A DNA stretch of 64,000 nt, from positions 89,686-153,685 of the forward strand of contig CAZPWJ010000001.1 of assembly GCA_964590195.1 (NCBI GenBank), in the 5' to 3' direction. Source of the stretch: an uncultured Rhodospirillaceae bacterium. GTDB taxonomy: Bacteria; Pseudomonadota; Alphaproteobacteria; GCA-2731375. Under the pieces are notes generated by a model that saw only the letters and a list, made by a program, of their open reading frames with translations, had not been told where the DNA came from and did no database searches. Both the position numbers and the translations under genes were made by a program. Below are positions 41,478-56,321 of the stretch, in pieces (the first letter of the stretch is position 1; each line of letters begins with the position of its first letter).

Positions 41478-41553
41478 GCCGCCTTAGCTCAGTTGGTAGA
41501 GCATCGCATTCGTAATGCGGAGGTCGGGTGTTCGAGTCACCCAGGCGGCACCA
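41478..41553 (+). tRNA. tRNA-Thr (anticodon CGT), CCA encoded
   Basis: Cloverleaf by hand: acceptor GCCGCCT/AGGCGGC, D-arm GCTC-AGTTGGTA-GAGC, anticodon stem TCGCA/TGCGG with loop TTCGTAA (anticodon CGU), T-arm GGGTG-TTCGAGT-CACCC, 3' ACCA. Confidence 0.9.
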
Positions 41554-41613
41554 CATCTTAATCTTCTGGTGATTTCAATACAGTGCCGGATGCGGCATGC
41601 GGAGGGCACGTCC

Positions 41614-42558
41614 ATGATCGATCTGTTGCAGGTTTCCCAATTGCCGCCTTTTCTGGTGGAGCGCCTGGAAAAGGAATTCACCCTGCATGACTTTGTCGAT
41701 CCGGCCGATCCCGACAAGCTGCTGGACGAAATCGGACCGCGCATTCGCGGCATTTTGGCGGGCGGCATGAAAGGTCCAAACGCCAATCTGATCAACCGGC
41801 TGGAAAACCTGGAGATCATCTCGTCGTTCAGCGTCGGTTACGACGCCACGGACGTGGCGGCGGCCCAGGCCCGCGGCGTGATCGTTACCCATACGCCGGA
41901 GGTGCTGACCGGCGACGTCGCCGATCTGGCCATGACCTTCATCCTGATGGCGCCGCGCCGCATTGGCGAGGCGGAACGTTATCTGCGCAGCGGCAAATGG
42001 CTGGGCGGGCGCATGGACCTGGGCACCACGGTGCGGGGCAAGCGGCTGGGCATTCTCGGTCTGGGCCGTATCGGCAAGGCGGTGGCGCGCCGGGCCGAGG
42101 TTTTCGGCCTGCACATCGCCTATCACGACATTAAGCCCATGGGCGATCTGGTCTATCGTTCCTATCCAAGCCTGCTAGACCTGGCCGATGCCTCCGACAT
42201 ACTTCTGGTCGCCTGTGAAGGCGGCGAGGCCAACCGCGGGCTGGTCGATGCGGCGGCGCTGAAGGCCCTGGGGCCGGACGGTTTCCTGATCAACGCCGCC
42301 CGGGGGCCAATTATTGATCAGCCAGCCTTGATCGCGGCGTTGCGCGACGGTGGCATCGCCGGTGCGGCAATGGATGTTTTCGATAGCGAACCGGAGGTGC
42401 CGGCGGAACTGATGGCCATGGAAAACGTGGTTTTGACGCCGCATATCGCCAGCTCAACCCACGAAACCCGCCGCGCCATGGCCGATCTGGTCTATGACAA
42501 CATCCGCGCGCATTTCGACGGCAAGCCGGTCCTCACGCCCGTGCCGCCGCAGATTTAG
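41614..42558 (+). CDS. D-isomer-specific 2-hydroxyacid dehydrogenase (glyoxylate/hydroxypyruvate reductase GhrA-like)
   Basis: NAD-binding GILGLGRIGKAVARRA; catalytic R/E/H context (…TPHIASSTHETR…). Confidence 0.85.
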   Translation: MIDLLQVSQLPPFLVERLEKEFTLHDFVDPADPDKLLDEIGPRIRGILAGGMKGPNANLINRLENLEIISSFSVGYDATDVAAAQARGVIVTHTPEVLTGDVADLAMTFILMAPRRIGEAERYLRSGKWLGGRMDLGTTVRGKRLGILGLGRIGKAVARRAEVFGLHIAYHDIKPMGDLVYRSYPSLLDLADASDILLVACEGGEANRGLVDAAALKALGPDGFLINAARGPIIDQPALIAALRDGGIAGAAMDVFDSEPEVPAELMAMENVVLTPHIASSTHETRRAMADLVYDNIRAHFDGKPVLTPVPPQI

Positions 42559-42560
42559 CG

Positions 42561-43256
42561 TTAGCTCAAGAGATCAAAGCGGGTGTTGTGCAGCACAAGG
42601 TTCCGCGTCACCCGGTAGTTTCCCGACAGGTGCTTGCGCAAATAGCGCACCGTGTCATGGCGGCCATCGACAACCATGGTAAATCCGGGTTCGAAACGAT
42701 CCTCTAAATACATAGCGTCAAAACAGATCTTCCGCTTCGGCTGCAAGGCCGGGCCGTCCACATAGAGAAAGTCCGGCCTGCCTTCGGGCAATTCCTCGTA
42801 GCGGTAGCCCAGGTCCAAATTCGGGCGCTGACCCCGGTCCTCTTCCATCGCCGGCACGTAACGAACCCCGCAATAGGGTGCGAGGTGCGCGGGTAGGGAT
42901 TCGCGGGTGACGTCGGCCCATTCCGCCAGGCCGTCAACGCTGATAATCCGTCCGGCTTTTTCCGGGTCGTCCTGAGCGTTGTCATGCAGGGCCTGGGCAA
43001 AGATCACCGTGGAGCAGCCACTGCCCAACTCTATCACCAGGCGCGGCTTGAGTTGCCGTATCAGGCGATAGAGGAACCACAGATCGCCGCCCTGGGGCGC
43101 CAATGCGCCTGCCGGGCGCGCTTCAACGAAATCGAGATAGCCCAGGCGGCGCAAACGCCAGCCGCCATGGATATTGGCCATGGTGCGGGCCAGGCCCAGC
43201 AAGGGCCGGGCCACCATCCAGGCAAGTTTGCGCCAAAGGGGGGGCGAAGAGCTCAA
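42561..43256 (-). CDS. Class I SAM-dependent O-methyltransferase, Methyltransf_24 (TylF/CmcI-like) family; paralog of 51357..52016
   Basis: SAM-binding PRLVIELGSGCSTVIFAQAL; acidic DFLYVDGPAL motif; about 40% identity to the second copy over the full length. Confidence 0.65.
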   Translation of the reverse strand: MSSSPPLWRKLAWMVARPLLGLARTMANIHGGWRLRRLGYLDFVEARPAGALAPQGGDLWFLYRLIRQLKPRLVIELGSGCSTVIFAQALHDNAQDDPEKAGRIISVDGLAEWADVTRESLPAHLAPYCGVRYVPAMEEDRGQRPNLDLGYRYEELPEGRPDFLYVDGPALQPKRKICFDAMYLEDRFEPGFTMVVDGRHDTVRYLRKHLSGNYRVTRNLVLHNTRFDLLS

Positions 43257-43409
43257 AAGATCAGATCACTTGTGTTGTAGTGCGGGCGTTGGTACGTGAG
43301 TTCGGGGAGCATTATCATTGGCCGTCCGCTCTGTCTATCATGGCGCTGATGGTCTTAGCGGATTATGGTGCGGCCAAACGGAAACCCACGAACAGGAATT
43401 TATTTCAGC

Positions 43410-44351
43410 GTGTCCAAACCCACAATTATCTACGTCGGCGCTCCCGAAGGTTTCGAAGCACTGGCCGAAACCGCAACTGCCGCGGACTGCATCCATGTTG
43501 AAGCCGAACACGATGCCCTGACGGCGGCGCTGAAGGATGCCCATGGCCTGCTGGACGCCTCCATGAAGGTGCGCATCGATGATGCCATGGTCGCCGCCGC
43601 GCCCAATCTACAGGTCATATCCTGTGCCACCACGGGTTCAGACCATATCGCGCGCGGCGAGGTCGGCAGCCGGGGCATCAACGTCCATACCCTGCGCGAG
43701 GACGGCGATCTATTGCAGGGCATCACACCGGCGGCAGAATTGAGCTGGGCTCTGGTCCTGGCCTGTGCCCGCCGCCTGCCCGCCGCCGCCGGCCATACCA
43801 AATCCGGGCAGTGGGTGCGGGAGGAATTTCCCGGCACCATGTTGAATGGCCGCACCCTGGGCCTGGTCGGCTGCGGCCGCCTGGGGCAATGGATGTCCCG
43901 CTACGGTGCGGCGTTCGGCATGCGCGTGCTGGGTCACGACCCCTATATGGAGCCATGGCCCGACGGTATCGAGAAAATGGAACTGGCCGAGATGATGGCC
44001 CAGTCGGACGTTGTTTCCGTGCACGTGCATCTGAGCGAGGAAACCACCGGCCTGCTGTCGCCCGAATTGCTGGCGGGCATCAAGCCCGGCGCCATTGTCA
44101 TCAATACCTCGCGCGGCGCCATCATCGACGAGGCGGCCTTGCTGGCCGGTCTGGAAAGCGGCCGTATCGGCGCCGCCGGGCTGGACGTGCTGGATGGCGA
44201 GCCGGAGATCGACCAGCACCCTCTGATCGTTTATTCCCGTAATCATGACAATCTGATCGTGACGCCGCATATCGGCGGCTTCAGTCCGGATGCGGTGCGC
44301 GTGGTCTGCCGCCGGGCGGCGGAAAAGATCATGGCGAAGCTGGGGTTATAG
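43410..44351 (+). CDS. D-isomer-specific 2-hydroxyacid dehydrogenase (phosphoglycerate-dehydrogenase-like), first gene of a four-gene operon
   Basis: NAD-binding GLVGCGRLGQWMSR; catalytic …NTSRG…, …VTPHIGG…. The start is either GTG 43410 (AGGAA 12 nt upstream) or ATG 43365. Confidence 0.8.
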   Translation: MSKPTIIYVGAPEGFEALAETATAADCIHVEAEHDALTAALKDAHGLLDASMKVRIDDAMVAAAPNLQVISCATTGSDHIARGEVGSRGINVHTLREDGDLLQGITPAAELSWALVLACARRLPAAAGHTKSGQWVREEFPGTMLNGRTLGLVGCGRLGQWMSRYGAAFGMRVLGHDPYMEPWPDGIEKMELAEMMAQSDVVSVHVHLSEETTGLLSPELLAGIKPGAIVINTSRGAIIDEAALLAGLESGRIGAAGLDVLDGEPEIDQHPLIVYSRNHDNLIVTPHIGGFSPDAVRVVCRRAAEKIMAKLGL

Positions 44352-44354
44352 ACC

Positions 44355-45890
44355 ATGCCAATCCAAGCCTTGGCCACATCTGCCGCCAAGAACGGCCCCG
44401 GCCACGCCTTTGGGGTGCCTGGATCGGGGCAGAGCCTGGACCTTATCCATGCCCTGGAAGGTAATGGCGTTGCCTTTCATTCCGTGCACCACGAAGGTGC
44501 CGCCGCGATCATGGCCGGTACCGTTGGGCGTCTGACGGGAAAAGCCGGCATGGCCATCGCCATCAAGGGGCCGGGCCTGGCCAACATGGTTGGCGGCATG
44601 GCGGCCTGCACCTACGAGAACCTGCCCATGTTGGCCGTGACCGAGGCTTACGGCCTGAACGTGCCCCTGGCCAAGGCGCACAAGCGGCTGGACCAAGGGG
44701 CGCTGACCGCTGCCGTATCGAAAGGCCGGCGCTATCTGGCCACGAATGGTCCCGGCTATGACGAACTGGCTGGCTGGGCTGGGCAAGAGGCTCCTGGCCC
44801 GGTGTTCCTGGAACTGGCGGGAGCCATCGACCTGGCCGACGCCGTACCCAAAGCCGGGGCCTTGCCCGATCAGGGCGATGTTCCGGGTCTGATCGAACAG
44901 GCGGAACGGCCCATCGTCATTGCCGGCACTCTGGCGTTGCGACTTGGTCTGTCGCCGGATCTGAACCGTTTGCAAATTCCGGTGTTCTCCACTGCCGCCG
45001 CCAAGGGCGCGGTGCATGAAGCTCTGCCCCACGCCGCCGGTGTCTACACCGGCGTCGGCCAGGAACTGTCGCCCGAAGCCGACCTGATCCAACGCGCGGA
45101 CTTGATCGTCGGCATCGGCCTGCGGCCCGGCGAGGTACTGGGCGCCGGGCCATTCCCGTGCGATGCGGTCAATCTTGATCCTATTGATGCGCCGGGCCAT
45201 GACGGCTTTGCCTTTGCCGGTGTCCTGCGGGATTCTGCACCCGCCTTGGAACGTTTGGCGCAAAAGGCCTGGGGGGTGGAAGAATGCGCGCGCGCCGTGG
45301 GCAAGTTGCGCCAGCATTTGCTGCGACCGGGCGACTTCCTGCCCGCCCATGCCTTTGCCGCCATTGCCCAGGCCTTTCCCGACGGCGTCCGCATGGTCAT
45401 CGACACCGGTTATTTCTGCACCGTCGGCGAACATATCTGGCAGGCCCCGAAAGGGAACTGGTGTCTGTCCTCGGGCTCGGGCCGCTATATGGGCATGGGC
45501 CTGCCGCAAGCCATCGCCGCCGCCGTACATGACCCATCGGTGCCGACTATCTTGGCGGTGGGCGACGGCGGCATTGCGCCGTTCCTGGCCGAGGCCCGCC
45601 TGGCCCGCCGTTTGAACCTGCCGCTGGCGGTCTTGCAGATGTCCGATGGCGGCTATGGCTCGGTCCGCACCCGGGCCATTGCCGACGGCCTGACCCAGGC
45701 GCCCATGCTGGAACCGGGCGCGTCATGGCGAGGCGCCTTCGACGGTATGGGGTTTGCCGGCGCCGAGGCAGGCAGCGCCGATGCCCTGGCGGCGGCTTTG
45801 ACGGATTGGCGGCCAAACGACGGCCCGATGTTTGCTCTGCTGCCCATGGAGAGTGAGCCCTATCAAGACATGATCCGAGGCGTCCGATGA
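44355..45890 (+). CDS. Thiamine-pyrophosphate-dependent enzyme (acetolactate-synthase-like / ketoacid decarboxylase superfamily)
   Basis: Three-domain ALS-like architecture; TPP/Mg-binding GDG motif in LAVGDGGIAPF…; 3-nt gap to the upstream gene and 4-nt overlap with the downstream gene. Confidence 0.8.
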   Translation: MPIQALATSAAKNGPGHAFGVPGSGQSLDLIHALEGNGVAFHSVHHEGAAAIMAGTVGRLTGKAGMAIAIKGPGLANMVGGMAACTYENLPMLAVTEAYGLNVPLAKAHKRLDQGALTAAVSKGRRYLATNGPGYDELAGWAGQEAPGPVFLELAGAIDLADAVPKAGALPDQGDVPGLIEQAERPIVIAGTLALRLGLSPDLNRLQIPVFSTAAAKGAVHEALPHAAGVYTGVGQELSPEADLIQRADLIVGIGLRPGEVLGAGPFPCDAVNLDPIDAPGHDGFAFAGVLRDSAPALERLAQKAWGVEECARAVGKLRQHLLRPGDFLPAHAFAAIAQAFPDGVRMVIDTGYFCTVGEHIWQAPKGNWCLSSGSGRYMGMGLPQAIAAAVHDPSVPTILAVGDGGIAPFLAEARLARRLNLPLAVLQMSDGGYGSVRTRAIADGLTQAPMLEPGASWRGAFDGMGFAGAEAGSADALAAALTDWRPNDGPMFALLPMESEPYQDMIRGVR

Positions 45891-46903
45891 GCAGTTCTTC
45901 TTCCGTGCCACACATATTGATCGTCGGTGCCGGCAGTGTCGGCCTGCGCCATGGCCGTAATCTTTCTGAACTGGGTTGCCGCGTCTCGGGCATGGACCCG
46001 CGCCAGGACCGGCGCGAGGCTTTCGCCGACGAATTTAGCTGCTTTGCCTATGAGGATCTGGAAACGGCCCTGGCGGCAGGCGGCCTGGATGGCGTCGCGG
46101 TTTGTTCGCCCACCCGCTTTCATGTGGAACAATGCCTGCCCGCGTTGGAAGCCGGCCTGCCGGTGCTGTTGGAAAAGCCCGTGTCCAAAACCCTGGCCGA
46201 GGCCGAGATCCTGGCCCAGGCCATCGAACGTACCGGCACGCCGCTGCTGCTGGGCTATACTTGGCGCTGGTGGCCGCCCCTGGCCAAGGTCCGCGCGTTA
46301 TTGGCGGAGAATGCCATCGGCGCCATTCGTTACGTGGATTTCACCATGTCGGCGCATCTGGCGGACTGGCATCCGGGCGAGCCGCTGGAGGAATTCTTCA
46401 TGTCGTCCGCCGAACTGGGCGGCGGTGCCCTGCTGGACGAAAGCCACTGGGTCGATCTGATGCTGTGGTTCTTTGGCATGCCGGAAAGCCTCTCGGCGCG
46501 GGTGGAGAAGATCTCCGATCTGGACATCACCTCGGACGACAACGTGGACATGATGATCAATTTCGCCGACGGCCTTCGCGCCAACCTGCATCTGGATCTA
46601 TATGGCCGGCCGCACCGCAAATCGATCCGCTTCATTGGCGAGGGCGGGACTATTCTATGGTCGGAAGCTCCAAACCAGATCGCGGTCTGTGTGGAGGCCG
46701 GCGAGAACTGGAACGAGGAACGCTTTGACTGCGAACGCAATGATATGTTCATGGGCGTGGCCAGGGAATATCTGGCGGTTCTGGCCGGCGCGCCCGTCGA
46801 CACCTGTGCCATTGCTGACGGCCTTGGCGTGATGACCTTATTGGAGGCGGCCCGGCAAAGTCATGCCGAGGGCCGCCGCATCGAGCCGGGATCGTCAGCA
46901 TGA
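45887..46903 (+). CDS. Gfo/Idh/MocA-family NAD(P)-dependent oxidoreductase
   Basis: N-terminal ILIVGAGSVGLRH Rossmann motif; EKP motif in LLEKPVSKTL. Confidence 0.85.
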   Translation: MSSSSSVPHILIVGAGSVGLRHGRNLSELGCRVSGMDPRQDRREAFADEFSCFAYEDLETALAAGGLDGVAVCSPTRFHVEQCLPALEAGLPVLLEKPVSKTLAEAEILAQAIERTGTPLLLGYTWRWWPPLAKVRALLAENAIGAIRYVDFTMSAHLADWHPGEPLEEFFMSSAELGGGALLDESHWVDLMLWFFGMPESLSARVEKISDLDITSDDNVDMMINFADGLRANLHLDLYGRPHRKSIRFIGEGGTILWSEAPNQIAVCVEAGENWNEERFDCERNDMFMGVAREYLAVLAGAPVDTCAIADGLGVMTLLEAARQSHAEGRRIEPGSSA

Positions 46904-47619
46904 GCATAGCGGGACAAACGGTTTTGGCCGTGGTGCCGGCGCGGGGCGGTTCTAAATCCATACCGCGCAAGAATCTGGCCAAGGTGGGCGGCATCTCTCT
47001 GGTGGGCCGGGCCGGCGAACTGGCCGCCTCCATGCCCTGGATCGACCGGGCGATCATCTCCACGGACGATGTTGAAATCGCGGCGGAAGCCACGCGCCAT
47101 GGGTTGGAGGCGCCGTTTCAGCGGCCCGAGGAGCTTGCCGCCGACAAATCCACCTCCACCGATATGTGGCGCCACGCCTGGCTGGCGGCGGAGGAACATT
47201 ACGGCATGCGCTTTGATCTTTCCATTTTGTTGGAGCCGACCTCGCCCATGCGCCGGGCCGAGGATCTGACCCGCTGTGTCGAAACTCTGCTGGACAGCGG
47301 CCACAAGGCGGCGGCGACCCTCAGCCCGACACCGGCCCATTTCACGCCGCATAAAACCCTGAAGCTGGATGATAGCGGCAACCTCGCGCCCTATCTGGCT
47401 GAGGGACGCAAGGCCCTGCGTCAAGGCATTCCCGACTATTATCATTGCAACGGCATCTGCTATGCCCTGCGCCGCGCCACCCTGGTGGACGAGGGCCACA
47501 TCATGGAAGACGACTGCATCGGCGTCGTCATCGACCGGCCCATCGTCAATATCGACGAGCCGTTCGAGCTGGAATTGGCGGAATGGCTGCTGGCGCGGGA
47601 AGCCGCCACGCGTTCGTAG
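46900..47619 (+). CDS. Acylneuraminate-type cytidylyltransferase (CTP_transf_3 family: CMP-NeuAc/CMP-Kdo/CMP-nonulosonate synthetase-like)
   Basis: N-terminal AVVPARGGSKSIPRKNL signature of NeuA/KdsB-type CMP-sugar synthetases; about 239 aa; last gene of the overlapping operon. Confidence 0.85.
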   Translation: MSIAGQTVLAVVPARGGSKSIPRKNLAKVGGISLVGRAGELAASMPWIDRAIISTDDVEIAAEATRHGLEAPFQRPEELAADKSTSTDMWRHAWLAAEEHYGMRFDLSILLEPTSPMRRAEDLTRCVETLLDSGHKAAATLSPTPAHFTPHKTLKLDDSGNLAPYLAEGRKALRQGIPDYYHCNGICYALRRATLVDEGHIMEDDCIGVVIDRPIVNIDEPFELELAEWLLAREAATRS

Positions 47620-47769
47620 CGGACAATAAGCAATACCCCACGCAAGAATCTCCACACCATGACCGACCCTGCGATCGTCAGAGCAGTTGGATGTTCCGAA
47701 TAGTGGTGGTGCGGGCCACCAGGCCGGCGCCGCCGAAGGCAGGGCGGGCCGGCCATTGTCGGGCCTCGG

Positions 47770-49353
47770 TTACTGTGCGCCGGACGGCCGCATCATCTTT
47801 TCCATCACTTTCTCGAGGCTGAAACTTGCCGGCTTTTGACGCGGCGGGAATTCCTTGAAAGTTTTCAGGAAATTACCCACATAGACCTGCGCTGGAACCA
47901 GGAGGTAAACCCGGTCAACCAGCCAGTCGTAGTAGGTGTTCGAGGTGGAATAAGCCCGTTCATAGGGATCGCGGCGCAGGTTGAATATCAACGGCACCCG
48001 AAGCGGCGTCCATGGCTCGACCCACGCGCGGAAGGTGGCTTCTGCCTTTTGCTCCATGAATATGGCCTTCCAATCACCGTACCGCAAAGCCGTGAGGTCA
48101 CCGTCGTCGGAGAAATAGAATATCTCCTTGCGCGGACCTTCCTTGGTTTCTCCTTTCAGATAGGGCAGGAAGTTGTAGCCATCGAGATGGACTTTGTAGC
48201 TACGCCCAATTGCCTCCACGCCGCCTTTCTTGAGCTTTTCCTTGATATTGGAATCTCCGGCGGCGGCCAGATAGGTTGGCAACCAGTCCATGTGGTGCAT
48301 GATTTCGTTCGACACCTGGCCGGACTTGATCCTGCCAGGCCAGCGCACCATGGACGGCACCCGCCAGCCGCCTTCCCAATTGGTGTTCTTCTCACCACGG
48401 AAGGGTGTCATCCCGGCATCCGGCCAGGTGTTCATATGGACGCCGTTGTCGGTCGAATAATGCACGATTGTGTTGTCGGCAATGCCAAGCTCGTCCAATT
48501 TGGCGAGCAGCTTGCCCACATGCATGTCATGTTCGACCATGCCATCGGCGTATTCGTCCTGGCCCGAGATGCCCCGTAGTTCCTTTTTCACGTGGGTGCG
48601 GAAATGCATCCGCGTGCCATTCCACCAGACATAGAAGGGTTTGCCGGCCTTGTGCGCCCGTTCGATAAAGCCCAGTGCAGCCTCTAGGGTTTCATCGTCC
48701 ACGGTCTCCATGCGTTTCTTGGTCAGGGCACCCGTATCCTCAACCGCACCGCCCGCCGATGACTTAATGACGCCGCGTGGGCCGAAACGTTTCCGGAAGG
48801 CGGGGTTCTTGGGATAATCCTCGTTCTCCGGCTCTTCCTCGGCGTTCAGGTGGTAAAGGTTGCCAAAGAACTCGTCGAAGCCATGATTGCTCGGCAACAT
48901 CTCGTCCCGGTCACCAAGATGGTTCTTTCCGAACTGGCCGGTGACATAGCCCTGCGCTTTAAGCAGGCCGGCAATGGTCGGGTCTTCCTTTTTCATGCCT
49001 TCCTTGGCGCCCGGCAGGCCGACTTTGGAAAGACCGGTGCGGAATACGCTCTGGCCCATGATGTAGGAGGAGCGGCCGGCGGTGCAGGATTGTTCGCCAT
49101 AATAATCAGTGAACATCATGCCCTCTTTTGCGATGCGGTCGATGTTTGGTGTCTTGTAGCCAACCAAGCCCATTGTGTAAGCGCTGATATTGGTCAAACC
49201 GATATCGTCGCCCCAGATCACCAGAATATTGGGCTTTTTATTCTGCGCCTGTGCTGACGCCCCCACGCCAATAATTCCAAGACTTACGACGCTTGCCATT
49301 GTCCAAGACAACAGTGTTGCGAATTTCCATTTATATTGACCCTGCCACGGCAT
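47770..49353 (-). CDS. Arylsulfatase (type I sulfatase, formylglycine-dependent)
   Basis: Signal peptide; GDDIG metal-binding start; formylglycine motif variant C-T-A-G-R (SCTAGRSSYIMG); sulfatase N-terminal domain throughout. Confidence 0.85.
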   Translation of the reverse strand: MPWQGQYKWKFATLLSWTMASVVSLGIIGVGASAQAQNKKPNILVIWGDDIGLTNISAYTMGLVGYKTPNIDRIAKEGMMFTDYYGEQSCTAGRSSYIMGQSVFRTGLSKVGLPGAKEGMKKEDPTIAGLLKAQGYVTGQFGKNHLGDRDEMLPSNHGFDEFFGNLYHLNAEEEPENEDYPKNPAFRKRFGPRGVIKSSAGGAVEDTGALTKKRMETVDDETLEAALGFIERAHKAGKPFYVWWNGTRMHFRTHVKKELRGISGQDEYADGMVEHDMHVGKLLAKLDELGIADNTIVHYSTDNGVHMNTWPDAGMTPFRGEKNTNWEGGWRVPSMVRWPGRIKSGQVSNEIMHHMDWLPTYLAAAGDSNIKEKLKKGGVEAIGRSYKVHLDGYNFLPYLKGETKEGPRKEIFYFSDDGDLTALRYGDWKAIFMEQKAEATFRAWVEPWTPLRVPLIFNLRRDPYERAYSTSNTYYDWLVDRVYLLVPAQVYVGNFLKTFKEFPPRQKPASFSLEKVMEKMMRPSGAQ

Positions 49354-49517
49354 TAGGCTCTCCCATCGAGCTGATTTGCAATTAAGACTGAATCGTAGAT
49401 AGAGTTTTCGCTACAGTTGTCCAGCCCAGTTGCAATGACCAAAAAATCTGCGATGTCGGCAGTTATTAGGGGCTATCAAATATTAGGGGCTATCAAAAAT
49501 CGGCTGCCGCGGCATTG

Positions 49518-49625
49518 GGCCCGACAGCGGCGCATTTTGCGCCGCACAAATCCCTGAAGCTGGACGATGCCGGCAATCGCGCACCCTATTTGGCAGAATG
49601 GCTATTGGCGGGCGAAGCCGTGCTC
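49518..49625 (+). pseudogene. Decayed remnant of a paralogous cytidylyltransferase gene (internal deletion; about 80% nt identity to 47323-47405 and 47580-47615)
   Basis: …PTAAHFAPHKSLKLDDAGNRAPYLAE|WLLAGEA… aligns to …PTPAHFTPHKTLKLDDSGNLAPYLAEG… and the C-terminal …AEWLLAREAATRS of the intact gene. No start, no N-terminal domain. Preceded by an 18-bp tandem repeat (49464-49500). Confidence 0.7.
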
Positions 49626-49632
49626 CAAGGCC

Positions 49633-50703
49633 TCAGGGCGGCAGGAATCGGCCGGAGGAGAAAAAGCCGTCGATTACCGGCTTCGGACTGCGCCGGGACA
49701 TCTCGGCACGGGATTTTATGGGCGATTGCAGGAACATGTTGGCGGGATAAATCTCGTCGCTGTAGAGGCCGTCGAACATCTCGGAGCGGATCTGCGCCAG
49801 GAAGTTTCGCCGCGGTTCCTGCCGCCGCGCCCGCAAAGCCTTCAGATTGATTTCCGAGGCCACGACGGTCTCGCCAGGGTACGGCGCCCGACCCATGATG
49901 ACGCCTTTATAATCAACGATCATGCTGTCGCCCGGCGTGAAGTCGGCGGGAAGTTCATCCGTGATCAGGCCGCCGGTGTTCGGCGCGATGACATAGGCGA
50001 TGTTTTCATGCGCCCGGACCCGGTTCTGTATCTCCCAGGTATTCATCAGCGGCGAGACCAGCGGCTCGGGATAGGCCGTCGGACGCAGAAGTATCTCAGC
50101 CCCCTGAAAGGTCAGGGCCCGTGTGACTTCGGGAAAATGGCCGTCCATGCAAATGAAGGTACCCAGCCGGCCGACCTTGGTCTCGGTGACCGGAAAGAAG
50201 GTCTCCAGCTTGCTCTTGCCCTTGCCATACAGCTCCATATAGCGGTCCATCATGTCGTGGGGGCTCATGGCCATTTCCGCATGAATGGCCGGAATGGCCT
50301 TGCGGTATTTATGGACGATTTCACCGCTCGGGCTGATGACGAAGGCGCAATTGAAATAGTATTCGGGCAATTCCGGATCATATTCCAGGGCGCAGCCGGA
50401 GATGTAGACATCAAGCTCCCGCGCTTTTTGCGCCAGCGCGTCGCTTTCCTTGCCGGGCAGGGTGATCAGGATTTCCCGGCGGCAATAATCCATGTCCACG
50501 TCGTGCCGGGTGGTGAAGCCTTGGAGAAAGAATTCCGGAAACGCGAACAATTTCAGCGGCGCGGCCACCTCGCCGAAACGGCGCATGCAGCCATCCATGA
50601 TGCCCAGATATTTTTCCAGGTTTTCGGCGATGTCTTCGCGCTTGTAGGCCCATTTGAGAATTGGCTGGAAAATGCACGCCGTGTACGTCTCATAATAACT
50701 CAT
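49633..50703 (-). CDS. Carbon-nitrogen hydrolase family amidase (aliphatic amidase/formamidase-like)
   Basis: Nitrilase-superfamily E-K-C triad context: FPEFF (Glu), EIVHKYRKAIP (Lys), FICMDGHFPE (Cys). Confidence 0.8.
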   Translation of the reverse strand: MSYYETYTACIFQPILKWAYKREDIAENLEKYLGIMDGCMRRFGEVAAPLKLFAFPEFFLQGFTTRHDVDMDYCRREILITLPGKESDALAQKARELDVYISGCALEYDPELPEYYFNCAFVISPSGEIVHKYRKAIPAIHAEMAMSPHDMMDRYMELYGKGKSKLETFFPVTETKVGRLGTFICMDGHFPEVTRALTFQGAEILLRPTAYPEPLVSPLMNTWEIQNRVRAHENIAYVIAPNTGGLITDELPADFTPGDSMIVDYKGVIMGRAPYPGETVVASEINLKALRARRQEPRRNFLAQIRSEMFDGLYSDEIYPANMFLQSPIKSRAEMSRRSPKPVIDGFFSSGRFLPP

Positions 50704-50800
50704 CGGACCACATCCAATAGTTCAACTGCCCGTCAAGCATATCGCGCCTGGACGAGATTTATCAAACCGGATTTGCCTGACGAATCAACTGCCGATGGGG

Positions 50801-51199
50801 CTACTTGCGCACAGCCGACCATTTACCGTCGCAGTAAGTCCGCGACGTTTCCTTCCAGGTGCCATTTCCGCCAGCCTTGAACAGCTTGCCGGTTATCATT
50901 CCTTCCACGCTATTGCCGGCACCCTTTGCGGTGAAGGCGCCATCCGCCGTGACCTCTCCCGACAAATACACCGGTCCCCTCTCACTGTGGTTCAGGATGC
51001 CGGTAACCTTGCCAGCCTTGACCACCAAAGGATCCGGAAACAGATAACCGGCACAATGGGGACTGCTCGAAGAACGCTTGGAGTACTCAATCGTAACCTT
51101 CCATTCGCCACTCAATGAGGATTGTGCGGCGGCTTGCCAAACAGGCGCCATGAAAATCATCATCAGCGCCGTCATCGTGGTTATCGTGCTAATTTTCAT
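50801..51199 (-). CDS. Small secreted protein of unknown function (signal peptide, 2 Cys)
   Basis: MKISTITTMTALMMIFMAPVWQAAAQS signal peptide; about 110-aa mature G/K/T-rich domain; no recognisable motif. Confidence 0.55.
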   Translation of the reverse strand: MKISTITTMTALMMIFMAPVWQAAAQSSLSGEWKVTIEYSKRSSSSPHCAGYLFPDPLVVKAGKVTGILNHSERGPVYLSGEVTADGAFTAKGAGNSVEGMITGKLFKAGGNGTWKETSRTYCDGKWSAVRK

Positions 51200-51356: not shown

Positions 51357-52016
51357 TCAGTCCGGCAGCAGGTCGTAGGTCGTACTTTTTAGAATGGGAC
51401 GATGTTTCCTTTGGTAGCGGCGCTTGAAGTACTTTTCCAGCAAGCTGCGGTTAAAGCTGCGTCCGTCCACCAGCAGGCGAAAGCCCGGCGGGAAATCCGC
51501 TTCCATATCCAGGACATCGATGGCGGCGCGGCGTTCCGGCGTCAGGGCCGGGCCGTCCAGATAGATCATGTCGGCCACCACGTCCGGCACGTTGGCAAAG
51601 CGCCATACCGGGGTGCCGTCAAGATCGTCCTCCACCCGCTCGGTCAGCGTCACCGTGCAAAACAGGCGCAGATGCTCGGGCATGCTGTCAATTGTTACCT
51701 GGCCCCAATGGGCGTCGGCATCCAGGGAATGCAGGAAACCAGGTGCGCCCTCGGCCGCATTGTCGGCCAGGGCCTGAGCGAAAATGATCGTCGAGCAGCC
51801 GCTGCCGAATTCCAATAGCACCTTTGGCCGGCGCGCCCGAACCTGGCTGTAGATAGCCCACAGGTCCGACCAGACCGGCGGCTTGGCCGTCGGCGGGCGA
51901 GCATCGAACAGCGCAAGGTAGCCGCGCTTTTTCAGTTGCCGCCAGCCACGGAAATTCAGGATGGCCACACCGATCTTGCGATAAATGATAGCGAGTTTTT
52001 GCTTGATCCAAGACAT
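51357..52016 (-). CDS. Class I SAM-dependent O-methyltransferase, Methyltransf_24 family; paralog of 42561..43256
   Basis: PKVLLEFGSGCSTIIFAQAL; DMIYLDGPAL. Start set at ATG 52014-52016 (MSWIKQKLAII…) by alignment with the paralog. The 144-codon upstream extension of the ORF is rejected. Confidence 0.65.
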   Translation of the reverse strand: MSWIKQKLAIIYRKIGVAILNFRGWRQLKKRGYLALFDARPPTAKPPVWSDLWAIYSQVRARRPKVLLEFGSGCSTIIFAQALADNAAEGAPGFLHSLDADAHWGQVTIDSMPEHLRLFCTVTLTERVEDDLDGTPVWRFANVPDVVADMIYLDGPALTPERRAAIDVLDMEADFPPGFRLLVDGRSFNRSLLEKYFKRRYQRKHRPILKSTTYDLLPD

Positions 52017-52067
52017 GGCACTATATAGTCCGAAACTCTCCTCCGGTGCATCAAGAAGATATCGCCC

Positions 52068-52907
52068 ATGGACAATACCATACCAATTTTTATCGGCGGC
52101 CTGATGCGCTCGGGCACCACGCTGCTGCGTGCCATGCTGGCGCAGCATTCGGCCATCGCCTCGGGCCTGGAAACCCATTGGTTCGACATCGACTGGCCGG
52201 CCCAACAGGCCAGGGGCGGGGAGCCGTTGCGGGACTATCTGCACCGCATAGGTGAATTCTTCGCTGTTGGCGGCGAAGCGGTCGATACCCAGATGGCGGC
52301 GGCGGATAGCGCGGCGGCCTTTCTGGATCTGTTCATGGGCGCCGTCACAATGGCGGCGGGCAAGCGGCGCTGGGCCGAAAAGACCACCGGCAATATCCGC
52401 CACCTGGATGCCATCCTGGCCCACTGGCCCCAGGCAATGATCATTCATGTGCTGCGCGACCCCCGGGACATCTTCGCCTCGTTCCGGCGCAGTAAGAAAT
52501 ACGGCGGCATTGATGACTTTGCCAACCTATGGTGCGACTACCTGGGCGATGTGGAGCGTTTCAAGGGCGCGCTGCCGCTCAACGACGGCAATTATCTTGA
52601 ACTGCGCTATGAGGCTCTGGTCCGCGACCCCATTGGTCAGATGCAGGCGGTGATCAGCTTTCTGGGCGAGGACTGGGAAGACGCCGTGGGCCGCTTCGAC
52701 GGCAAGGCGGACGAGCATGACCGGGTCCTCGGCCTGACCGGGCATTCCTCAACCACCCTGGAGCAGATCGCGCATCCGCTAAGCCAGAACCGTGTCGGTC
52801 TGGGACAGGACAGTATCAGCGACGAGGAAATGGCCATCGCCCGCACGGTGGCGGCGGAACGCGGCCTGGGCGAGCTGTTCGCCCGGATCGAGCGGGAGGC
52901 GCGCTAA
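52068..52907 (+). CDS. Sulfotransferase-family protein (PAPS-dependent)
   Basis: 5'-PSB motif RSGTTLL near the N-terminus; 3'-PB motif RDPRD; about 279 aa. Confidence 0.8.
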   Translation: MDNTIPIFIGGLMRSGTTLLRAMLAQHSAIASGLETHWFDIDWPAQQARGGEPLRDYLHRIGEFFAVGGEAVDTQMAAADSAAAFLDLFMGAVTMAAGKRRWAEKTTGNIRHLDAILAHWPQAMIIHVLRDPRDIFASFRRSKKYGGIDDFANLWCDYLGDVERFKGALPLNDGNYLELRYEALVRDPIGQMQAVISFLGEDWEDAVGRFDGKADEHDRVLGLTGHSSTTLEQIAHPLSQNRVGLGQDSISDEEMAIARTVAAERGLGELFARIEREAR

Positions 52908-52917
52908 ACAGCCTGCG

Positions 52918-53961
52918 CTAGCCGTCCGGCGAAACCACCACTTTCATGCACTCGCGCCGTTCCAGAAGCGTGAAGGCCCGGTCAATCTCGGCAAAGGGCA
53001 GAACATGGGTCACCAGCTGGCGCAACTCGCCCGCCAGCGCGCCGGCCAGGGTTGTGCTGCGGACCCAGGTACCCCGGTTATAGGCGCGGCAGCCGATCAG
53101 CTCTTTTTCATCCAGGGCCAGGGGCAGGGAATGGAAAGGTGCCGCGGCATGACAGTAGCCGACGATGCCCAGCCGCCCGCCACGGCGCAGGGCCGGCAGG
53201 GCCGCGGCAAGGGCATCGTGATGGCCGCTGGCATCGTAGGCGACATCGGCGCCCCTTGGTGCTACGCGGCGAACGGCGGCAGCAAGATCTTCGCTGTCCT
53301 GATCCACCGTGACGGCGCCAAGCTTTCGGGCCAGGGCCAGGCGGGAGGCATCGGCGGCGACGCCGGCGACGATCACTTCCGATGCGCCGGCGGCGCGGGC
53401 GACCAACAGATGCAGCAGACCCACCGGCCCCGCGCCCATGACCAGTGCCACATCACCGGCGCCCATGGGCACCCGTTCGAGGACGGCATGACTAGCAACG
53501 GTCAACGGCTCTATCACCGCGGCCACGAGAGGATCGGTGCCGTCGGGCAGGACGAATGCATTGTCGGCAGGTACGGCAATCCGTTCCGCCAGGCCGCCGG
53601 GGGCGTGGCAGCCCATGATGCTGCGCTGGGTGCACAGCGCGTGGCGGCCGCTGTTGCAATAGAAGCAGCGGCCGCAATTGAGGTGCGGCGTAACGGCGGC
53701 CAGGGCACCGACGGCGATGCCTTCCACACCAGGGCCCACAGCTTCGATGCGGCCGGCGAATTCGTGGCCCAGGACATGGGGAAAGGCCGGCGCATATTCC
53801 GCCGCGATATCGTCATCCCAGCGCCGGATCGCCAGATCGGTGCCGCACAGGCCGCCGCCATTGACCCGAAGCAGCACCTGGCCCGCAGCCAGCGTCGGCT
53901 CCGCCACCTCGATCTCCGTGATATGGCCCGGAGCCGGCTCTGTTTTAGCTATTGCGCGCAT
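52918..53961 (-). CDS. Zinc-dependent alcohol dehydrogenase family (sorbitol/threonine dehydrogenase-like MDR)
   Basis: GHEFAGRIEAVG catalytic-zinc motif; structural-zinc CGRCFYCNSG; NAD-binding LVMGAGPVGLL. Start at MRAIAKTEP. Confidence 0.85.
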   Translation of the reverse strand: MRAIAKTEPAPGHITEIEVAEPTLAAGQVLLRVNGGGLCGTDLAIRRWDDDIAAEYAPAFPHVLGHEFAGRIEAVGPGVEGIAVGALAAVTPHLNCGRCFYCNSGRHALCTQRSIMGCHAPGGLAERIAVPADNAFVLPDGTDPLVAAVIEPLTVASHAVLERVPMGAGDVALVMGAGPVGLLHLLVARAAGASEVIVAGVAADASRLALARKLGAVTVDQDSEDLAAAVRRVAPRGADVAYDASGHHDALAAALPALRRGGRLGIVGYCHAAAPFHSLPLALDEKELIGCRAYNRGTWVRSTTLAGALAGELRQLVTHVLPFAEIDRAFTLLERRECMKVVVSPDG

Positions 53962-54043
53962 GCCGGCCAGCTTGCACGACGAAGGCGTATCAGGCAACCT
54001 GGATGCCAGGACGCGCCTTGGCGGACCGCCAATCAGCAGGAGT

Positions 54044-54868
54044 ATGACCGTGATCGACATGAACGGCTTTGCCGTCAACACCTACGCCTATACCTTTTCC
54101 CACAGTGCTGGCGACTGCATCGAGACCTACGCCGGCACCGGCGCCCAGGGGCTCGAGGTCATGATGTATCCGGGCCATGCCTGGCCTGACGACCTGGACC
54201 AGGGCGCCCGCCGCGCCCTGGCGAAACAAAGCCGCGATGCCGGCTTGCCCATTATCAGCCTGAACATGCCGAACATAGACATCAACATCGCCGCCGCGAC
54301 GCCGGACATGCGTGCCTACAGTATTGATACCCTGTGCCGCATCCTTGCCCTGGCGGGCGATCTGGAGGTGCCGGGCGTGGTGATCGGTCCCGGCAAACAA
54401 AATCCCCTGATGCCGGCGCCCAGAGATGTTCTGCTCGGCCATTTTCACAAGGCCATGGAAACCCTGGTGCCCGCCGCCCGTGCCGCCGGCACAAGATTGC
54501 TGGCGGAGAACATGCCCTTTGCCTTCCTGCCCGGCGCCGAAGAGATGATGGCGGCGCTGGAGCCATACGCCGTCGAGGATGTGGGCGTGGTTTACGATAT
54601 CGCCAACGGCCATTTTTGTGGCGAGGATCTGGCGATAGGCTTTCGCGCCGTGGCGCCGCGCCTGGCCCTGGTGCATGTTTCGGACACACCGACCGACGTC
54701 TACCTGCATGCGGCGGTGGGGCAAGGTTCGGTGCCGTTTGCCCATGGCGCCAAGGCCTGCCGGGCGGCAGGCTATGACGGCCCGACCATGCTGGAAATCA
54801 TCTGCGACGATCCCGACCGGGAGATCCCGGCCTCCGCCGAAGCCTTGTCGGAAATGGGCTGGCGCTAG
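54044..54868 (+). CDS. Sugar-phosphate isomerase/epimerase (xylose-isomerase-like TIM barrel) family protein
   Basis: AP-endonuclease-2/xylose-isomerase TIM-barrel pattern (…NMPNIDINIA…, …HVSD…). Start at ATG 54044 (MTVIDMNG). Confidence 0.7.
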   Translation: MTVIDMNGFAVNTYAYTFSHSAGDCIETYAGTGAQGLEVMMYPGHAWPDDLDQGARRALAKQSRDAGLPIISLNMPNIDINIAAATPDMRAYSIDTLCRILALAGDLEVPGVVIGPGKQNPLMPAPRDVLLGHFHKAMETLVPAARAAGTRLLAENMPFAFLPGAEEMMAALEPYAVEDVGVVYDIANGHFCGEDLAIGFRAVAPRLALVHVSDTPTDVYLHAAVGQGSVPFAHGAKACRAAGYDGPTMLEIICDDPDREIPASAEALSEMGWR

Positions 54869-55533: not shown

Positions 55534-55616
55534 CGAAAGTCAGTTTATCTTAAGCCTTGACGGTGGGCCATCCGTGGTACCATCGGGCAATTATTTTCAA
55601 AGGAAAGAACAGCAAC

Positions 55617-56321
55617 ATGGATGTCGCAGGCAAGAAAGCATTGGTATTTGGGGGAACGTCGGGGATCGGCCTGGCCACGGTGGAACAGTTGGTGGCCCTG
55701 GGCGCCAACGTGGTCGCCATAGGCCGCAGCCCGGAAAAAGCCAGCGAACTGCCGGCGGGCGTGGAATTCAGGCAGTGCGACGTACGCGACCGTGATGCGT
55801 TGGAGGCCCTGTTCGCGGACTGTGCCCCCTATGACATTCTGGTCACGGCGGCGACCGGGGGCGATCGCGCCGCCGGCCCGTTCATGGAGATGGACCTGGA
55901 CGGCTATCAGGCGTCATTCGACAAACTGTGGGGCTATGCCAATGTCGTTCGCCTGGGCGGGGGTCGGTTAAGCGAGAGCGGCGGTATTGTCCTGGTCAGC
56001 GGCTCGCCGGCGCGCAAGGCCAAACCGGGCCAGGTCGCCCTGGCCTCGGTCGGTGGCGCGGTGGAGGCTCTGGCCCGCGCGGTGGCGCCGGAAATCGTGC
56101 CCAAGCGCCTGAATGTGGTGTCGCCCGGCCTTATCAATACGAACATGTTCGGCCCGGCCAGCGAAAAGCGCGACGAAATGGTCGCGGCCAATTCGGCCAA
56201 GAATCTGATCCCGCGCGGCGGCACGGCGAACGAAGTGGCACAAGCCATCCTGTTCGTCATTCAGAACGACTTCGTCACCGGCACCACGGTCGACGTGGAC
56301 GGCGGCTGGTTGTTGTCTTAG
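55617..56321 (+). CDS. SDR-family oxidoreductase
   Basis: ALVFGGTSGIGLA Rossmann motif; about 235 aa. Confidence 0.8.
   Translation: MDVAGKKALVFGGTSGIGLATVEQLVALGANVVAIGRSPEKASELPAGVEFRQCDVRDRDALEALFADCAPYDILVTAATGGDRAAGPFMEMDLDGYQASFDKLWGYANVVRLGGGRLSESGGIVLVSGSPARKAKPGQVALASVGGAVEALARAVAPEIVPKRLNVVSPGLINTNMFGPASEKRDEMVAANSAKNLIPRGGTANEVAQAILFVIQNDFVTGTTVDVDGGWLLS

Follow-up and report, generated by a model that had tools for sequence, protein, structure and literature searches.

In the present study, we analyzed a four-gene operon in a 64,000-nucleotide stretch of DNA from an uncultured Rhodospirillaceae bacterium (assembly GCA_964590195.1, contig CAZPWJ010000001.1, positions 89,686 to 153,685 of the forward strand; hereafter, the window, in whose numbering all positions are given). 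The operon encodes a D-isomer 2-hydroxyacid dehydrogenase (HADH), a thiamine-diphosphate (ThDP) enzyme that resembles acetolactate synthase (ALS), an NAD(P) oxidoreductase of the Gfo/Idh/MocA family (GFO), and a cytidylyltransferase (CTP in gene orders). The four genes and the features around them are listed in Table 1. An earlier reading of the same DNA, made from the sequence alone (hereafter, the sequence-only reading), had proposed that this combination makes a nucleotide-activated acid by a route without an aldolase-type synthase.

Table 1. Operon genes and surrounding features of the window
Feature	Position	Strand	Description
HADH, D-isomer 2-hydroxyacid dehydrogenase	43410..44351	+	313 aa; Pfam 2-Hacid_dh_C
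ALS-like ThDP enzyme	44355..45890	+	511 aa; Pfam TPP_enzyme_N, M, C
GFO, Gfo/Idh/MocA NAD(P) oxidoreductase	45887..46903	+	338 aa; GFO_IDH_MocA and C-terminal domains
CTP, NeuA/PseF-like CMP-nonulosonate-type cytidylyltransferase	46900..47619	+	239 aa; Pfam CTP_transf_3
Intergenic region, probable promoter	43257..43409	+	5' of the operon, divergent from MT24a
MT24a, Methyltransf_24-like	42561..43256	-	divergent from the operon; Pfam E 2.5e-5, just below cut-off
Arylsulfatase-like gene	47770-49353	-	inside an insertion of about 2 kb (47607-49624)
MT24b, Methyltransf_24-like	51357..52019	-	conserved cassette neighbor in alphaproteobacterial clusters
Sulfotransferase	52068..52907	+	Pfam Sulfotransfer_3, E 1e-38

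The four plus-strand open reading frames (ORFs) and their domains had been described correctly in the sequence-only reading, and all of them are intact. The junctions are also as it described: the HADH and ThDP genes are separated by a 3-nt gap (TAG at 44349-44351, ACC, and then ATG at 44355), and ATGA overlaps connect the ThDP gene to the GFO gene (45887-45890) and the GFO gene to the CTP gene (46900-46903). The operon had been placed at 43365-47619; the end of this span stands, but its start probably does not. The HADH gene probably starts at GTG 43410 (313 aa) instead of ATG 43365 (328 aa), because the homologues and some gene calls have 313-314 aa. The region 5' of the operon is a probable promoter; the only two sigma-70-like matches in 42900-48000 both lie there (43289-43341), but they are not above the shuffled expectation and are weak evidence. 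The same scan gave no terminator-like site above chance inside the operon. The dN/dS ratios of the four genes against sister loci were 0.04-0.19 (0.05-0.19 for HADH); the genes are under purifying selection. As all catalytic motifs are also intact, we rejected the idea that the cassette in the window is a decaying remnant.

HADH matches Pfam 2-Hacid_dh and 2-Hacid_dh_C (the latter with E 4e-51) and contains a GxGxxG motif. In an alignment to the human and Mycobacterium tuberculosis D-3-phosphoglycerate dehydrogenases (PGDHs), it retains the Arg235/Glu264/His287 catalytic triad, in which the Arg is presumably the residue that binds the carboxylate of the substrate in 2-oxoacid dehydrogenases. 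We read the protein as a putative D-2-hydroxyacid/2-oxoacid dehydrogenase. A true PGDH was rejected: PGDH was the best NCBIfam match, with 190 bits against a cut-off of 454, and the positions aligned to R54 and R75 of human PHGDH, which we take to be phosphate-binding arginines, are Ala and Cys.

The ThDP enzyme is ALS-like, as the sequence-only reading had stated. All its NCBIfam matches are far below the cut-offs (the best was PRK08322, 137 bits versus 509). Its closest solved relatives are catabolic ALSs, with 107 bits for the single sequence and 177-187 bits for the family profile, and these are followed by carboxyethylarginine synthase and then by BbmA/CsmA and acetohydroxyacid synthase. 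An AlphaFold model (pLDDT 87, pTM 0.90) has the full three-domain ALS fold and superposes on Klebsiella pneumoniae ALS with a TM-score of 0.82 at 26% identity. Glu47, GDG403-405, and D431 are invariant in the family, which comprised 242 representatives at 50% identity (E<=1e-30). By sequence the enzyme constitutes a family of its own, nearer to catabolic ALS, and it is the defining member of the gene set described below. The question of its placement had been raised with the phosphonopyruvate and sulfopyruvate decarboxylases among the candidates. The enzyme falls outside both groups, since the central TPP_enzyme_M domain is present and the fold has three domains; neither PEP mutase nor sulfolactate-gene partners were found among the annotated neighbors. 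A true acetolactate or acetohydroxyacid synthase was also rejected, as the best ALS models gave at most 137 bits against cut-offs of at least 509 and the context is a glycan cluster. The window encodes a second ThDP enzyme (56431-58089, minus strand), which belongs to the PRK08199 subfamily (581 bits, above the cut-off) and is unrelated to the cassette enzyme (31% identity over 90 residues). Its gene adjoins genes for a NIPSNAP protein, a short-chain dehydrogenase/reductase (SDR), a xylose-isomerase-like TIM-barrel protein, and a zinc alcohol dehydrogenase (Zn-ADH).

The cytidylyltransferase had been left between the KdsB, NeuA, and PseF/LegF groups, and it proved to be of the PseF/NeuA type, that is, of the CMP-nonulosonate type. 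It matched the PseF model of NCBIfam with 113 bits, below the equivalog cut-off of 205.7, so that the assignment holds at the family level only. KdsB (CMP-Kdo synthetase) was rejected, as its models gave 27-37 bits and covered only the N-terminal 70 residues. The best PDB matches were 6IFD (87 bits) and the NeuA structures 1EYR (81 bits) and 9FTB (80 bits). The first was deposited as a CMP-N-acetylneuraminate synthetase and is treated as PseF of Aeromonas caviae (PMC13656337). The protein carries the PARGGSKSIPRKN motif. GFO contains a Rossmann motif, GAGSVG (residues 14-19), and an EKP motif (96-98). Its solved relatives are weak and generic (at most 68 bits), and it has a weak match of 70 bits to an archaeal UDP-N-acetylglucosamine (UDP-GlcNAc) 3-dehydrogenase.

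We then examined the distribution of the cassette. The loci comprised 79 from species-representative genomes together with metagenome loci, and homologues of the neighboring genes were mapped by tblastn. Loci with less than 72% ThDP-enzyme identity and enough flanking sequence were called distant (n=45), and those with at least 72% identity were assigned to the clade of the window (n=12); NeuB and NeuC were counted when present anywhere in the locus. Most of the 81 related loci that we mapped show the order HADH-ThDP-GFO-CTP, an arrangement far beyond chance, and the four genes are conserved as a block across phyla. This agrees with the proposal that they act in one pathway. NeuB and an Epimerase_2 protein of the NeuC type were both present in 42 of the 45 distant loci, mostly directly upstream of the cassette, and the usual order is NeuB-NeuC-HADH-ThDP-GFO-CTP. 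The claim that a CMP-activated acid is made here without an aldolase-type synthase finds no support in these loci, nor in two sister metagenome-assembled genomes (MAGs) described below. The sequence-only reading had allowed that the four genes might belong to a characterized pathway with its missing partners encoded nearby; such partners do exist in NeuB and NeuC, but the six-gene pathway itself is uncharacterized. As for the three exceptions, one locus has kept a truncated Epimerase_2 fragment (L039), one has an inserted MBOAT gene and no NeuB within 10 kb (L064), and one has an SDR gene and regulators upstream (L032). No alternative synthase was found in any of the three.

The additional members of the module point to its core chemistry. 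The module NeuC scored 376 bits to NeuC_NnaA (TIGR03568), above the cut-off of 235.9, and its nearest PDB match was the epimerase domain of human GNE (247 bits), versus 180 bits for a legionaminic-type hydrolyzing epimerase. The module NeuB was nearest to Neisseria meningitidis NeuB (193 bits versus 128 for PseI), and NeuB, like the cytidylyltransferase, scored below the NCBIfam equivalog cut-offs. The six-gene module has no conserved dehydratase, aminotransferase, or acetyltransferase, which also points to a core of the N-acetylneuraminic acid (Neu5Ac) type. The core thus looks like a Neu5Ac-type core, as judged from these scores and the gene content.

The gene order is permuted in the Nitrospira, Desulfovibrio, and Prochlorococcus versions (L083, L084, and L085, respectively). 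In the latter two, the pairs NeuB-NeuC, HADH-ThDP, and GFO-CTP remain adjacent; in the Nitrospira version, HADH-ThDP and GFO-CTP are adjacent, and NeuB and NeuC lie apart. The persistence of these pairs suggests that HADH is the partner of the ThDP enzyme and GFO that of the cytidylyltransferase. A second nonulosonate gene set, in part or whole, occurs near four of the loci (L084, L063, L073, and L028) and is most complete in L084 and L073.

The module was found in Alpha-, Beta-, Gamma-, and Deltaproteobacteria, Acidobacteriota, Nitrospira, Marinimicrobia, a Prochlorococcus single-cell genome, and a Methanoregula MAG. The carriers were MAGs and one single-cell genome, with no cultured strain among the named family representatives; nearly all members of the module come from uncultured organisms (marine, soil, and sediment bacteria). 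The Methanoregula sp. MAG (L037, NZ_JALOCH010000007.1) has the full six-gene module, and its HADH, GFO, and CTP are 57-63% identical to the proteins of the window, an indication of either gene transfer across domains or a binning error. The alphaproteobacterial module (L001, L007, and L021) lies inside a larger cluster with a MarR_EPS-type regulator, a NusG paralogue, an MsbA/PglK-like ABC exporter, and an M20 deacylase, to which a 218-aa methyltransferase-like gene, a sulfotransferase, a polysaccharide deacetylase, and further methyltransferases are added. Proteins of 450-480 aa in this cluster weakly resemble nonulosonate-associated glycosyltransferases. In most organisms the module is housed in a surface-glycan cluster of this kind, with the glycosyltransferases being putative.

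The situation is different in the marine Rhodospirillaceae clade of the window, where neither NeuB nor NeuC was found within 10 kb of the cassette in any of the 12 loci. The sequence-only reading had stressed that no synthase, aminotransferase, or acetyltransferase is present; this is true for the 64-kb window, but it is a peculiarity of the clade and not of the gene set. In one sister MAG (GCA_964344935.1), contig CAYFPL010000005.1 carries the cassette near 116 kb (L020) and, about 59 kb away on the other strand, the genes HTH_24-NusG-M20-NeuB-NeuC near 176-177 kb (L087). In another (JABIRL01), the cassette is on contig 320 (L015) and the NeuB locus is on contig 162 (L089). The same layout, with regulators, M20, NeuB, and NeuC followed by unrelated genes, recurs on other related contigs. 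The presence of NeuB and NeuC elsewhere in the sister MAGs, together with MarR/NusG-type regulators, indicates a split cluster and not a new pathway. We infer for the genome of the window that the ancestral cluster was split in this clade and that the window has HADH-ThDP-GFO-CTP, the two Methyltransf_24 (MT24)-like genes, and the sulfotransferase. A caution for other loci follows: the reading of a single window can suggest a "synthase-free" pathway where a cluster has merely been split.

The relocated NeuB-NeuC genes (L087, L089, L094, and L101) are flanked by up to four genes for M20/M28 metallopeptidases or deacylases, one of which, of the PRK07079 type, is translationally coupled to NeuB. 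These genes hint at de-N-acylation or amino-acid chemistry on the sugar. Additional dehydrogenases also occur at both kinds of loci. The window encodes a second D-2-hydroxyacid dehydrogenase at 41515-42558 (plus strand; GhrB/glyoxylate-reductase-like, 223 bits to PRK13243), and a dehydrogenase of this type sits just upstream of the cassette in the clade of the window. A further paralogue of 331 aa is encoded just 3' of the relocated NeuB-NeuC genes (L089, 14199-15194; L101, 12944-13939). These extra dehydrogenases may be a coincidence or may be related to the supply of hydroxypyruvate or glycerate.

Taken together, the cassette very probably belongs to a NeuB/NeuC nonulosonate pathway, and we consider it reasonably likely that a cluster for a modified nonulosonic acid of the sialic-acid type has been split, with the operon as its tailoring and activation half. 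The chemistry of the tailoring can be proposed more tentatively. NeuC would convert UDP-GlcNAc to N-acetylmannosamine (ManNAc) by hydrolytic epimerization, NeuB would condense ManNAc with phosphoenolpyruvate to a 2-keto-3-deoxy acid of the Neu5Ac type, and the cytidylyltransferase would activate the acid to a CMP-sugar. GFO would then turn a single hydroxyl of the (CMP-)sugar into a carbonyl by oxidation, like ElaA in the scheme proposed for CMP-legionaminic acid, and the ThDP enzyme would decarboxylate a 2-oxoacid and add the resulting acyl anion to this carbonyl, as YerE and ErwE do on CDP-keto-sugars. HADH would supply the 2-oxoacid donor from a D-2-hydroxyacid (for example, hydroxypyruvate from glycerate) or, less likely, reduce the product. 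These steps would yield a CMP-activated ulosonic acid whose carbon skeleton is branched or extended, and its acceptor would be a sulfated and methylated glycan. The gene pairs fit this scheme, in which a CMP-sugar is the substrate of GFO and the ThDP enzyme receives its 2-oxoacid from HADH, and we counted in favor of carboligation that the nearest solved relatives of the ThDP enzyme (catabolic ALS and carboxyethylarginine synthase) are carboligases. Even so, we hold this particular order of oxidation and then carboligation to be possible more than probable, and the same reserve applies to the wider suggestion that the six genes make a new class of CMP-ulosonic acids through a thiamine-dependent C-C bond on an oxidized sialic acid.

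Several points weigh against this reading. Searches of the 64-kb window by tblastn with the proteins of relatives gave no homologue of NeuB, NeuC, or M20. Among the close NeuB homologues, none is on a contig of the length of those that carry the ThDP protein of the window (396-401 kb), and the link of the window to NeuB and NeuC rests on sister MAGs whose ThDP enzymes show 74-78% identity. ThDP enzymes can also cleave or merely decarboxylate their substrates. The family profile of the ThDP enzyme gave 117 bits to the putative YerE-like structure 5AHK, versus 177-187 bits to catabolic ALS; this structure is presumably PpYerE, an identity for which a literature search gave no confirmation. The Desulfovibrio locus L084 also holds a canonical nonulosonate cluster, with whose GFO the module GFO shares only about 26% identity; the module GFO is therefore not an ElaA orthologue. 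The substrate and the regiochemistry of every tailoring step are inferred, and the tailoring could act on UDP-GlcNAc or ManNAc before NeuB. In favor of the mechanism, CMP-activated ulosonic acids with an extended C10 backbone were detected by mass spectrometry in Magnetospirillum gryphiswaldense, with no genes assigned to them in the available part of that report (10.64898/2026.04.20.719630); they are a lead only.

Among the alternatives, the one that survives best places the tailoring before the synthase. GFO would oxidize UDP-GlcNAc or ManNAc, the ThDP enzyme and HADH would branch or extend the hexosamine, NeuC and NeuB would build from it a nonulosonate modified in its distal part (C6-C9), and the cytidylyltransferase would act last. 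The conservation of the six genes is equally accounted for, nucleotide-hexoses are the substrates of YerE-type enzymes, and the weak GFO match to the archaeal UDP-GlcNAc 3-dehydrogenase (70 bits) fits it. However, the adjacency of GFO and CTP in the permuted loci and the precedent of ElaA/ElaB favor a CMP-sugar as the substrate, and the enzymes that NeuC and NeuB resemble take UDP-GlcNAc and ManNAc in unmodified form. Neither point is decisive, and we regard this alternative as unlikely.

Somewhat less likely still is a cleavage by the ThDP enzyme. In this case GFO would make a keto-nonulosonate (for example, the 8-keto form, similar to a ketose at its ketol end), from which the ThDP enzyme would remove a C2 unit in the manner of a transketolase or lyase, or the enzyme would decarboxylate a 2-oxoacid; HADH would complete the redox chemistry, and the product would be a shortened ulosonic acid. 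The ALS-like superfamily does include benzaldehyde lyase and 2-hydroxyacyl-CoA lyase, which gave about 95-115 bits to the family profile. However, the closest relatives are carboligases (177-187 bits, and a TM-score of 0.82 to K. pneumoniae ALS), HADH would have no obvious role on an aldehyde product, and we know of no precedent for a ThDP-dependent truncation of a nonulosonate.

The self-contained pathway of the sequence-only reading, in which a keto- or hydroxy-acid arises through HADH, the ThDP enzyme, and GFO without an aldolase-type synthase, the cytidylyltransferase activates it, and the route runs independently of NeuB in the clade of the window, is improbable in our view. It is true that neither the window nor the 10 kb around the cassette in 12 of 12 clade loci contains NeuB or NeuC, that the four genes are under purifying selection in the clade, and that the supply of a 2-oxoacid by HADH to a ThDP enzyme is chemically coherent. 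However, the sole cytidylyltransferase of the module is of the NeuA/PseF type and is embedded with NeuB and NeuC in 42 of the 45 distant loci, and the sister MAGs retain NeuB and NeuC elsewhere beside the MarR/NusG-type regulators of the cluster. Marginally the least probable is a simple epimerization, in which GFO oxidizes the sugar, HADH re-reduces it from the other face as in ElaA/ElaC, and the ThDP enzyme is accessory (for example, providing an acyl unit for an N- or O-substituent): the ElaA/ElaB/ElaC precedent and the M20 deacylase that accompanies the module in its alphaproteobacterial versions agree with it, but HADH retains the catalytic Arg that we take to bind the carboxylate of 2-oxoacids and stays paired with the ThDP gene and not with GFO, no acyltransferase is conserved in the module, and the ThDP gene is conserved as strictly as the other five.

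Concerning the surroundings of the operon, the sequence-only reading had connected it with neighboring sulfation and methylation enzymes. The sulfotransferase and the methyltransferase-like genes of 218-231 aa are indeed conserved, but the sulfatase is a lineage-specific insertion. Homologues of the sulfotransferase (40-65% identity) lie 3' of the cassette in many loci from several lineages. MT24b is 57-72% identical to the gene directly 3' of the cytidylyltransferase gene in four loci (L001, L007, L021, and L024); neither Pfam nor NCBIfam gave a match for the window copy itself, and only its L001 homologue has a weak precomputed Methyltransf_24 match. MT24a, which is upstream of the cassette in most loci of the clade, is a paralogue of MT24b (40% identity) and is 42% identical to the cassette-adjacent homologue in L001. 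The segment with the sulfatase gene is an insertion relative to three sister loci, where the CTP and CN_hydrolase regions are about 35 nt apart (L008, the closest sister), less than about 150 nt apart (L009), or contiguous (L011); the sulfatase is therefore outside the conserved cluster. The insertion has at its right edge a tandem duplication of 17 nt, ATTAGGGGCTATCAAA(T), with copies at 49465-49481 and 49482-49497. Beyond these copies lies a relic of about 100 nt (49502-49597), which shares 78% identity with an internal segment of the cytidylyltransferase gene (47307-47402) and about 79-84% identity with the homologous region of L008, L009, and L022. The region 49465-49630 looks like the scar of a recombination with a second, diverged copy of the cassette. 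Two long ORFs without Pfam matches, 49567-50880 (plus strand, 437 aa) and 52792-54189 (plus strand, 465 aa), overlap genes with better support on the opposite strand (CN_hydrolase, 49633-50703, and Zn-ADH, 52918-53961, respectively) and are probably shadow ORFs of GC-rich DNA. The nearest SDR gene in the window (55557-56321) is outside the conserved neighborhood.

The wider setting is an ordinary chromosome (purF-like, radA-like, alr, dnaB, fabF, and surA genes) with no large glycan island. Proteins with 100% identity to the ThDP protein occur on marine metagenome contigs of up to about 400 kb, and its closest named relatives are from "Rhodospirillaceae" and Alphaproteobacteria MAGs. Nothing was found on plasmids by megablast of the operon or by tblastn of the ThDP protein.

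Nonulosonic acids cap bacterial surface glycans and shape phage, immune, and cell-cell recognition. To our knowledge, the known routes to them (the neuraminic, legionaminic, and pseudaminic acid routes and those to their epimers) alter the stereochemistry and the N-substituents but never the carbon skeleton. The co-inheritance of a ThDP enzyme with NeuB, NeuC, and NeuA across many phyla suggests a tailoring chemistry undescribed for nonulosonates. If this is true, a route of the module type could explain higher-carbon ulosonic acids to which no genes have been assigned. The outcome is a concrete set of six genes for expression and assay.

In the full-text literature, we found no published account of a module that joins NeuB, NeuC, and NeuA to a ThDP enzyme and a 2-hydroxyacid dehydrogenase, in agreement with the view of the sequence-only reading that the combination is not a textbook route. 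A related combination is the sfmABCDE cluster of Shewanella oneidensis, which has a NeuB-domain protein together with an IlvB-like ThDP enzyme, a reductase, and a methyltransferase (PMC3765264). According to the available portion of that paper, the cluster is required for a fully functional flagellar filament and motility (PMC3765264). Unlike the module, the sfm operon as described there has an SDR of the 3-oxoacyl-ACP-reductase type and is without a Gfo/Idh/MocA protein, a 2-hydroxyacid dehydrogenase, or a cytidylyltransferase; its ThDP protein has 581 aa.

A closer chemical precedent for the ThDP enzyme is provided by YerE/YerF and ErwE/ErwF, which take part in the ThDP-dependent acyl branching of CDP-4-keto-3,6-dideoxyglucose to yersiniose and erwiniose (PMC9306805, PMC12247030). 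YerE and ErwE belong to the ALS superfamily and transfer an acyl group derived from a 2-oxoacid to nucleotide keto-sugars, after which a reductase acts (PMC9306805, PMC12247030). The module is similar in that an ALS-superfamily ThDP enzyme (with Glu and a GDG...N/D motif) occurs with NAD(P) oxidoreductases in a sugar-nucleotide pathway. It differs in that the proposed acceptor is a CMP-nonulosonate and not a CDP-hexose, and the carbonyl is proposed to come from a dehydrogenase and not from a dehydratase route; neither a glucose-1-phosphate cytidylyltransferase nor a 4,6-dehydratase is conserved in the module.

For GFO and the cytidylyltransferase, the precedent is ElaA/ElaB/ElaC of Acinetobacter baumannii KL49, which make CMP-8-epi-legionaminic acid (PMC13656337). 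ElaA, a Gfo/Idh/MocA protein encoded next to the CMP transferase ElaB, was proposed from structures and docking to oxidize C8 of CMP-Leg5,7Ac2, the CMP-activated diacetylated legionaminic acid, and in the proposed scheme an SDR re-reduces the oxidized sugar (PMC13656337). As in this system, GFO adjoins the CMP transferase, with a 4-nt overlap in the window and adjacency in the permuted loci. Unlike it, neither the operon nor the conserved six-gene module has an SDR corresponding to ElaC, HADH and the ThDP enzyme are present instead, and the core of the module appears to be Neu-type and not legionaminic.

The known system nearest to the whole module is NeuC-NeuB-NeuA, which makes CMP-Neu5Ac in N. 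meningitidis and Escherichia coli K1. The full module of the relatives shares with it a NeuC_NnaA-type epimerase, a NeuB-type synthase, and a NeuA/PseF-type cytidylyltransferase, and it is likewise without a dehydratase, an aminotransferase, and an acetyltransferase. The clade of the window differs from it in having NeuB and NeuC at another locus, and the module as a whole differs in adding the strictly co-conserved HADH, ThDP, and GFO genes between NeuC and the cytidylyltransferase.

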